The notes beneath the pieces are model-generated. The model ran no database searches, was not told the DNA's origin, and worked only from the letters and a program-made list of their open reading frames with translations. From the IMG/VR virus record IMGVR_UViG_2667528065_000005: a stretch of 17,986 nt of DNA. The stretch is one strand, 5' to 3'. The DNA is from a virus (Duplodnaviria; Heunggongvirae; Uroviricota; Caudoviricetes). Shown piece by piece: positions 4,268-4,805 of the stretch. Position numbers and translations under genes: made by a program. How positions within the stretch are numbered: position 1 is the first letter of the stretch; the number at the start of each line of letters is the position of its first letter.

Positions 4268-4777
4268 ATGTCTTCGGATGCTGATGCTCACAAAGTGGGC
4301 TTAATCCCCGTCACCCTGATGGTGTCGGGGAATATTATGGGGTCAGGTGTTTTTCTGTTACCTGCAAACCTGGCCTCCACTGGCGGGATTGCTATTTATG
4401 GATGGTTGGTGACGATTATCGGTGCGCTGTCGGTGCGCTGGGGCTCTCGATGGTATACGCCAAAATGTCGTTCCTCGACCCAAGTCCTGGTGGTTCTTAC
4501 GCTTACGCCCGCCGCTGCTTTGGCCCGTTTCTCGGTTATCAAACCAACGTCCTCTACTGGCTGGCCTGCTGGATCGGCAATATCGCCATGGTGGTCATTG
4601 GCGTAGGATATTTAAGTTACTTCTTCCCGATTCTGAAAGATCCATTGGTATTAACCATCACCTGCGTCGTGGTGCTGTGGATCTTCGTCCTGCTGAACAT
4701 TGTCGGTCCGAAAATGATCACCCGCGTACAGGCCGTTGCTACCGTGCTGGCGCTGATCCCCATCGTCGGGATTGCCG
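4268..4777 (+). pseudogene. adiC: Arginine:agmatine antiporter AdiC, 5' portion only; frameshifted by an 11-bp tandem duplication and cut off by the prophage junction
   Basis: [54 protein letters not shown] in frame 2, then ...[47 protein letters not shown]...IPIVGIA in frame 1. Coding sequence diverges into unrelated DNA after about 4777. Confidence 0.85.
4419..4440. repeat. Perfect 11-bp tandem duplication (tcggtgcgctg x2) in adiC; frameshift
   Basis: Read directly: 4419-4429 repeated at 4430-4440. Confidence 0.95.
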
Positions 4778-4805
4778 GAGGGGATTAGACTTGAGATAAA
4801 TGACA

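Follow-up and report, generated by a model that had tools for sequence, protein, structure and literature searches.

Phage Mu inserts into host DNA with a target duplication of 5 bp. In BcepMu-type phages, the transposase has an rve core and the genome is bounded by 5′-TG...CA-3′ termini (PMC2628397). The phage described here is already known and common: over positions 4783-6000 of the stretch of DNA analysed (hereafter the window), it shows 100% nucleotide identity with Escherichia phage PhiKM (PQ738613.1), and over 4783-17986 it is identical or nearly identical to the prophages of the E. coli strains ECKH-100, L4_E1441_ETEC and cS51a, which have the same termini and the same gene order. The sole difference between the window and these PhiKM-like prophages is the insertion site, which here is adiC. 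The same phage DNA is present in approximately 620 complete E. coli genomes, with matches beginning at window positions 4780-4783, and TGATTAGACTTGAG is the start of each of four copies that are flanked by unrelated DNA (a lambdoid tail gene, cysE, cmoB-torZ or rimK). The occurrence of one element at many unrelated sites, adiC included, with the same terminal base each time, is the behaviour by which a Mu-like phage is recognised. Note also that the chromosome record of ECKH-100 (NZ_CM181230.1, positions 1-4) starts three bases ahead of where the same phage ends; the sequence may have been cut open there during assembly, which could happen if the sequenced culture contained phage copies that differed in their flanks.

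The window is the entire contig AOQI01000070.1 (17,986 bp) of the draft E. coli assembly GCA_000397365.1. Its host part was compared with E. coli D8 by global alignment of window positions 1-4778, and the boundary region is made up as follows:

20-4777: E. coli chromosome with the 3′ part of melR, adiA, adiY and the 5′ part of adiC, from the alignment to D8
4268..4781, plus strand: 5′ part of adiC, codons 1-168 once the 11 bases judged artefactual are dropped, interrupted by the prophage
4776..4781, plus strand: left copy of the target-site duplication, true sequence CGTATT, CGGAGG in the window
4778..4782, plus strand: miscalled bases, GAGGG for TATTT, with four T to G changes in five bases
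about 4782 to the contig end: Mu-like prophage
4782..4944, plus strand: non-coding prophage terminus, Mor-proximal, beginning TG with the T miscalled as G

Positions 20-2288 have no mismatches to D8, and positions 4783-17986 match other prophages perfectly over 13 kb. The first 19 bases of the window, CCTTAACTGATCGGCATTA, are an IS4-type element terminus that opens the contig. The same 19-mer terminates units of approximately 1.4 kb in E. coli and Shigella chromosomes, one of which encodes a transposase with Nterm_IS4 and DDE_Tnp_1 domains. melR restarts at base 20, and the 12 bases expected to precede it are absent; at the corresponding melR site, the sibling contig AOQB01000082.1 has a garbled 18-nt copy of the IS end as a bridge, and melR is intact in a 40-kb sibling contig.

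The preliminary description of this DNA, made from its letters, had reported a perfect 11-bp duplication that shifts the AdiC reading frame, and this duplication is indeed present in the sequence:

4419-4429 and 4430-4440, plus strand: perfect tandem duplication of TCGGTGCGCTG, two copies of 11 bp, judged an assembly artefact

Tandem Repeats Finder reports 2.0 copies at 100%, and in the alignment the second copy is an 11-base insertion relative to uninterrupted adiC. A perfect 11-bp tandem repeat is expected by chance approximately 0.004 times in 18 kb (18,000 × 4^-11), and a chance match is excluded. The 11-bp shift means that an open reading frame at 4268-4606 leaves the adiC frame and that another, at 4402-4788 (128 aa), holds the remainder. 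Look-up of the first of these returned no record, and the reconstructed 169-aa product ending in GIAGGD is absent from the protein collection. A 169-aa adiC product of sibling contigs, ending in ...GIAVFD and a stop, corresponds to adiC ...GCC GTA TT joined to TGATTAG. This protein was found as a member of the cluster of the 128-aa ORF and is carried by 11 contigs, including the 40-kb contig, AOQB01000082.1 (a neighbouring accession) and read-based Logan reassemblies of sibling isolates (SRR653724, SRR653737, SRR653739 and SRR653745).

These sibling contigs also define how the phage is joined to adiC. In the window, homology to adiC ends after 4777 and conserved phage DNA is recognised from 4783; the bases between them, GAGGG, match neither adiC nor the phage and cover the final four adiC bases together with the base (T) that opens the phage. 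The siblings read TATTT at 4778-4782, and therefore the true junction is 4781/4782; the T at the phage terminus is found in five of five sibling contigs and in four other genomes. The left junction of the siblings is ...GCCGTATT/TGATTAGAC..., also given as ...GCCGTATT/TGATTAG and, at greater length, as ...GGGATTGCCGTATT/TGATTAGAC in AOQB01000082.1 and the four Logan reassemblies (the phage side also being TGATTAGACTTGAG). Their right junction is ...GCGCATCA/CGTATTTGGCTGG..., with the host side also given as CGTATTTGG and followed by the rest of adiC; in its longer form, from AOQO01000013.1 and AOQN01000005.1, it reads ...GCGGCGCATCA/CGTATTTGGCTGG, with the host side also given as CGTATTTGGCTGGTTC. 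Beyond this junction, both contigs continue through the rest of adiC into eptA, basR, basS and proP. They were found via a 267-aa C-terminal AdiC ORF, independently of the length of the duplication, and the ORFs predicted at the right junction for a 5-bp duplication (295 and 287 aa) are absent from the collection. Left and right sibling junctions together give a target-site duplication at adiC of 6 bp, CGTATT.

Duplications of 6 bp were also found at the two other insertions checked, GTCACC in NZ_LR883012 and TCGGTG in cS51a. In L4_E1441_ETEC (NZ_LR883012.1) the element is approximately 37.4 kb long and its end, ...GCGGCGCATCA, lies just past a Gin-like recombinase. The 30-mer across the junction as it stands in the window has no match in genome contigs or viral contigs, the clean junction 30-mer has none in viral contigs, and none of the complete E. 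coli genomes in the collection carries the phage at the adiC site.

The earlier claim that adiC contains one end of a transposable prophage is thus borne out by the same phage DNA elsewhere, by the transposition genes and by the sibling junctions, and the search it had proposed, for the other prophage end, the remaining adiC sequence and a target duplication, succeeded in AOQO01000013.1 and AOQN01000005.1. Its placement of the junction near 4778 agrees with the loss of adiC homology after 4777, but falls four bases short, within the miscalled 4778-4782. The best account is that a Mu-like phage of approximately 37 kb, of the PhiKM type, inserted by transposition behind codon 168 of adiC, where the 6-bp CGTATT was duplicated. 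The phage end nearer to Mor, TGATTAGAC..., begins at window position 4782; the opposite end lies on another contig of the genome together with the remaining 277 adiC codons, followed by eptA-basRS. The truncated AdiC keeps 168 of 445 residues, and arginine-dependent acid resistance would be expected to be lost in the clone.

The phage part of the window contains the following genes:

4945-5334, minus strand: Mor-family late activator (Pfam Mor; PHROGs)
5306-5755, minus strand: GemA/gp16 (Pfam GemA; PHROGs)
7957..8487, minus strand: Mu Gam-like DNA-end protection protein (Pfam Phage_Mu_Gam; phrog_491, E = 2e-73)
8787..9953, minus strand: AAA+ transposition protein with a MuB-like role (phrog_296 'DNA transposition protein', E = 2e-93; Pfam AAA_22)
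9964..11733, minus strand: DDE (rve) transposase, 589 aa (phrog_310, E = 8e-148; Pfam rve)
minus strand: DUF3102 protein and a small regulator
13277..13684, plus strand: CI-type repressor, divergent from the early operon (Pfam HTH_3 and Phage_CI_repr; PHROGs repressor families)
13755-14762: NA37 nucleoid-associated-family protein (Pfam, E = 1e-80)
14765-15970: membrane protein, 401 aa, matching the Kiwa defence system protein KwaA only weakly (PADLOC, E = 8e-5)
15960-16730: D12/Dam-type DNA methyltransferase, on the opposite strand to the rest of the cargo block

Mor and GemA are the last genes of a leftward early operon, and the CI-type repressor is followed on the plus strand by cargo and lysis genes. 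The cargo block, 13755-16730, lies between the repressor and the holin and may be a defence or host-modulation moron. The phage termini are TGAT...ATCA, i.e., TG...CA. A GATAAATG motif at 4795-4802 recurs in inverted orientation at the other phage end, so that both ends consist of TGAT, nine bases and then GATAAATG; these shared end sequences are probably bound by the transposase. A truncated prophage remnant ending after Mor was also considered and rejected, since the terminus is the normal phage one.

The 11-bp duplication is not the only irregularity of the host part. The alignment to D8 and the comparison with sibling contigs gave the following list, in which 'artefactual' stands for our judgement:

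2289..2822, plus strand: seven artefactual tandem duplications in the 3′ part of adiA, absent from the Logan reassemblies and the 40-kb contig, with first copies at 2289 (16 bp), 2367 (21 bp), 2436 (22 bp), 2502 (24 bp), 2562 (33 bp), 2638 (21 bp, one mismatch at its position 20) and 2782 (19 bp, without GCT near the end)
3159, 3172 and 3952: insertions of 1-2 bp, from the alignment to D8
3184: single substitution, 1 bp, from the alignment to D8
3494..3540, plus strand: garbled stretch in adiY, absent from the Logan reassemblies
3594..3647, plus strand: artefactual 27-bp duplication in adiY, final base of the upstream copy wrong
3800..3841, plus strand: artefactual 21-bp duplication in adiY, followed by the 1-bp insertion of C at 3952

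Counting the 11-bp repeat, the contig thus contains 10 short tandem duplications of 11-33 bp; the nine others measure 16-33 bp, lie between 2289 and 3841 and extend the damage to adiA and adiY. The garbled stretch at 3494-3540 consists of a degenerate extra copy of CACGACATCATCAAAGAT into which single bases have been inserted at three points; substitutions and a short loss come after it. All anomalies lie within 2289-4782, add approximately 229 bases in total and break adiA, adiY and adiC: in the window, adiA is shortened to 601 aa and adiY is divided, whereas in sibling contigs the two are intact at 756 and 253 aa. Natural allelic variation, considered for the small differences at 3159-3540, was rejected, as the siblings equal the D8 reference there.

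Comparison with related sequences argues that these irregularities do not belong to the organism. All differences between the window and the four Logan reassemblies fall in 2289-4782, and the reassemblies equal D8 at each of them. The 40-kb sibling contig has no indel relative to D8 over 5.7 kb, and none of 5,400 complete E. coli genomes has the duplications (best match, 96.8%). The 11-bp duplication is absent from every other contig with an adiC::phage junction, including the four read-based reassemblies, and sits within a cluster of contig-specific errors, so that the earlier reading of it as an additional mutation of the organism does not hold. We consider it very probable that this duplication is an assembly artefact, and we infer its absence from the isolate's own reads from the siblings and from the Logan/ENA index. 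The frameshifts of adiA, adiY and adiC, being artefacts, are therefore not mutations, and the prophage insertion is the sole inactivating lesion of the locus.

The form of the errors is informative as to their origin. In all three imperfect duplications (3/3), the mismatches are confined to the final 1-3 positions of the copy lying upstream, and the one downstream is identical to the reference; the same 3′-end asymmetry is seen in the garbled adiY stretch and in the adiA duplication of AOQB01000082.1. Errors at the 3′ end of upstream copies are what is expected of unmerged overlaps with kept read tails, and not of independent mutations of the copies. Within the same interval, AOQB01000082.1 contains degenerate duplications unlike those of the window, one of 29 bp in adiA and two, of 44 and 29 bp, in the intergenic region upstream of adiY. 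Its contig-specific anomalies are located, in its own numbering, as follows:

1501-1512, 2854-2882, 4489-4532 and 4588-4616

The presence of different duplications in the same interval of a sibling assembly points to the assembly process and not to the genome. Finally, the run of T to G changes at 4778-4782 looks like G/T miscalling in a read tail; such a run is a typical Illumina base-calling confusion in poor cycles.

By this account, reads or sub-assemblies would have been joined end to end with their overlaps of 11-33 bp left unmerged, which would yield the 10 tandem duplications, and error-rich read tails would have been retained, which would yield the degenerate 3′ ends of upstream copies, the stray insertions of 1-2 bp and the reading of TATTT as GAGGG. 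This route through the assembler is the one that the pattern of errors suggests. The confinement of the errors to 2.5 kb could arise because this segment is short, unique and bounded by an IS4 copy on one side and a phage end on the other, which would be difficult for an overlap assembler. A collection of sibling E. coli isolates has been described whose HiSeq 2000 reads were assembled with the Celera Assembler (PMC4462620), and it may be the source of the present assembly.

Several irregularities were noticed in other contigs. The 40-kb sibling contig has a 7-base insertion plus substitutions at 6053-6067, 10-25 bases inside the phage end, and sibling assemblies seem to show the fault repeatedly in the interval next to the phage end. 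AOQN01000005.1 differs from AOQO01000013.1 by a 4-bp tandem duplication (AACC) in proP at 5646-5649, and its called product is shortened to 469 aa. JARCCX010028093.1 encodes, at 8732-9961, a 409-aa AdiC fragment in which approximately 70 residues are repeated internally, and its adiA and melA are split. It is probably another assembly with duplication errors; its 409-aa AdiC was set aside as a hit from an unrelated assembly.

The strongest competing explanation would take the duplications as real: a burst confined to the DNA beside the prophage end of one isolate would have produced short templated duplications and small errors, possibly when an abortive transposition or a break at that end was repaired by DNA synthesis of low fidelity and prone to slippage. 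We regard such a burst as very unlikely, and it is marginally less likely still that the garbled stretch and the T to G run are real along with the duplications, all forming the mutational scar of a failed transposition or end repair in a single isolate. The tight clustering of the events beside the phage end, with none in the rest of an otherwise base-perfect contig, would suit a burst, as would the flanking microhomology of 1-4 bases at some of the duplications. Two duplications extend by 2-4 bases of microhomology, which also fits genuine replication slippage. However, not one of the approximately 25 differences is found in any sibling contig or read-based reassembly, and the duplication-specific ORFs (128 and 601 aa) are recorded only for this NCBI contig and are absent from the Logan assemblies of public reads (Logan/ENA). 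A burst would have to account, in addition, for degenerate duplications that differ in a sibling assembly yet occupy the same interval, for mismatches that in every case fall at the 3′ end of whichever copy lies upstream, and for four T to G changes in five bases lying exactly at a boundary of contig building, between the faulty stretch and the clean phage DNA.

Two narrower alternatives concern single features. The junction of adiC and phage could have arisen by deletion or rearrangement beside a prophage located elsewhere, and not by direct transposition; this would explain why GAGGG matches neither partner and why the terminal T is missing, and the window alone shows no clean transposition product. 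Yet the sibling contigs are clean at the same place, differing from the window only in having T for G at four positions, and the reciprocal junction exists with a perfect 6-bp target duplication, by which this reading is already refuted for the lineage; we consider it highly improbable, below either form of the burst. The other alternative, which we rate lowest of all and scarcely credible, sees in the 11-bp duplication the footprint of an IS4 copy that had inserted into adiC and was later excised. IS4 produces target duplications of 11-13 bp, a range that includes the observed length, and the IS4-type terminus at window positions 1-19 indicates that the element has been active in the lineage. 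The duplication is nevertheless absent from all siblings, its nine companions of 16-33 bp do not fit IS4, and an IS that is lost does not usually leave both target copies behind, the normal outcome being either a restored target or a deletion of DNA beside it.

Taken with the artefactual reading of the duplications, the locus combines a known kind of event, the insertion of a transposable prophage into a host gene, with assembly errors. As a biological event it is a routine case in which a transposable phage disables a host gene and by which the clone would have been deprived of its arginine:agmatine antiporter. For users of GCA_000397365.1 the frameshifts in adiA, adiY and adiC would pass as three decayed genes, where there is one real lesion, the prophage in adiC, and surveys of pseudogenes or short tandem duplications that include this draft series would pick up false signals. 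That a widespread Mu-like phage of E. coli makes target duplications of 6 bp is a small but firm fact.

The anomalies resemble the consensus and overlap errors of short-read drafts, which likewise are specific to a contig, show an upstream copy decayed at its 3′ end and differ between sibling assemblies; it is their restriction to 2.5 kb that sets this contig apart. The phage itself shares with phage Mu the transposable lifestyle, a transposase with an AAA+ partner, Gam, GemA and Mor, and a Gin-like invertase adjoining the tail-fibre genes at the far end. It differs from Mu in its target duplication, which is 6 bp in three independent insertions where a strict correspondence with Mu would give 5 bp, and in its early operon, which points outwards to the phage end and places Mor 165 bp from the terminus. 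The likeness to BcepMu-type phages is one of organisation only and consists in the TG...CA termini, the Pfam match of the transposase to the rve core alone, an early operon transcribed towards the nearby end and random insertion sites.
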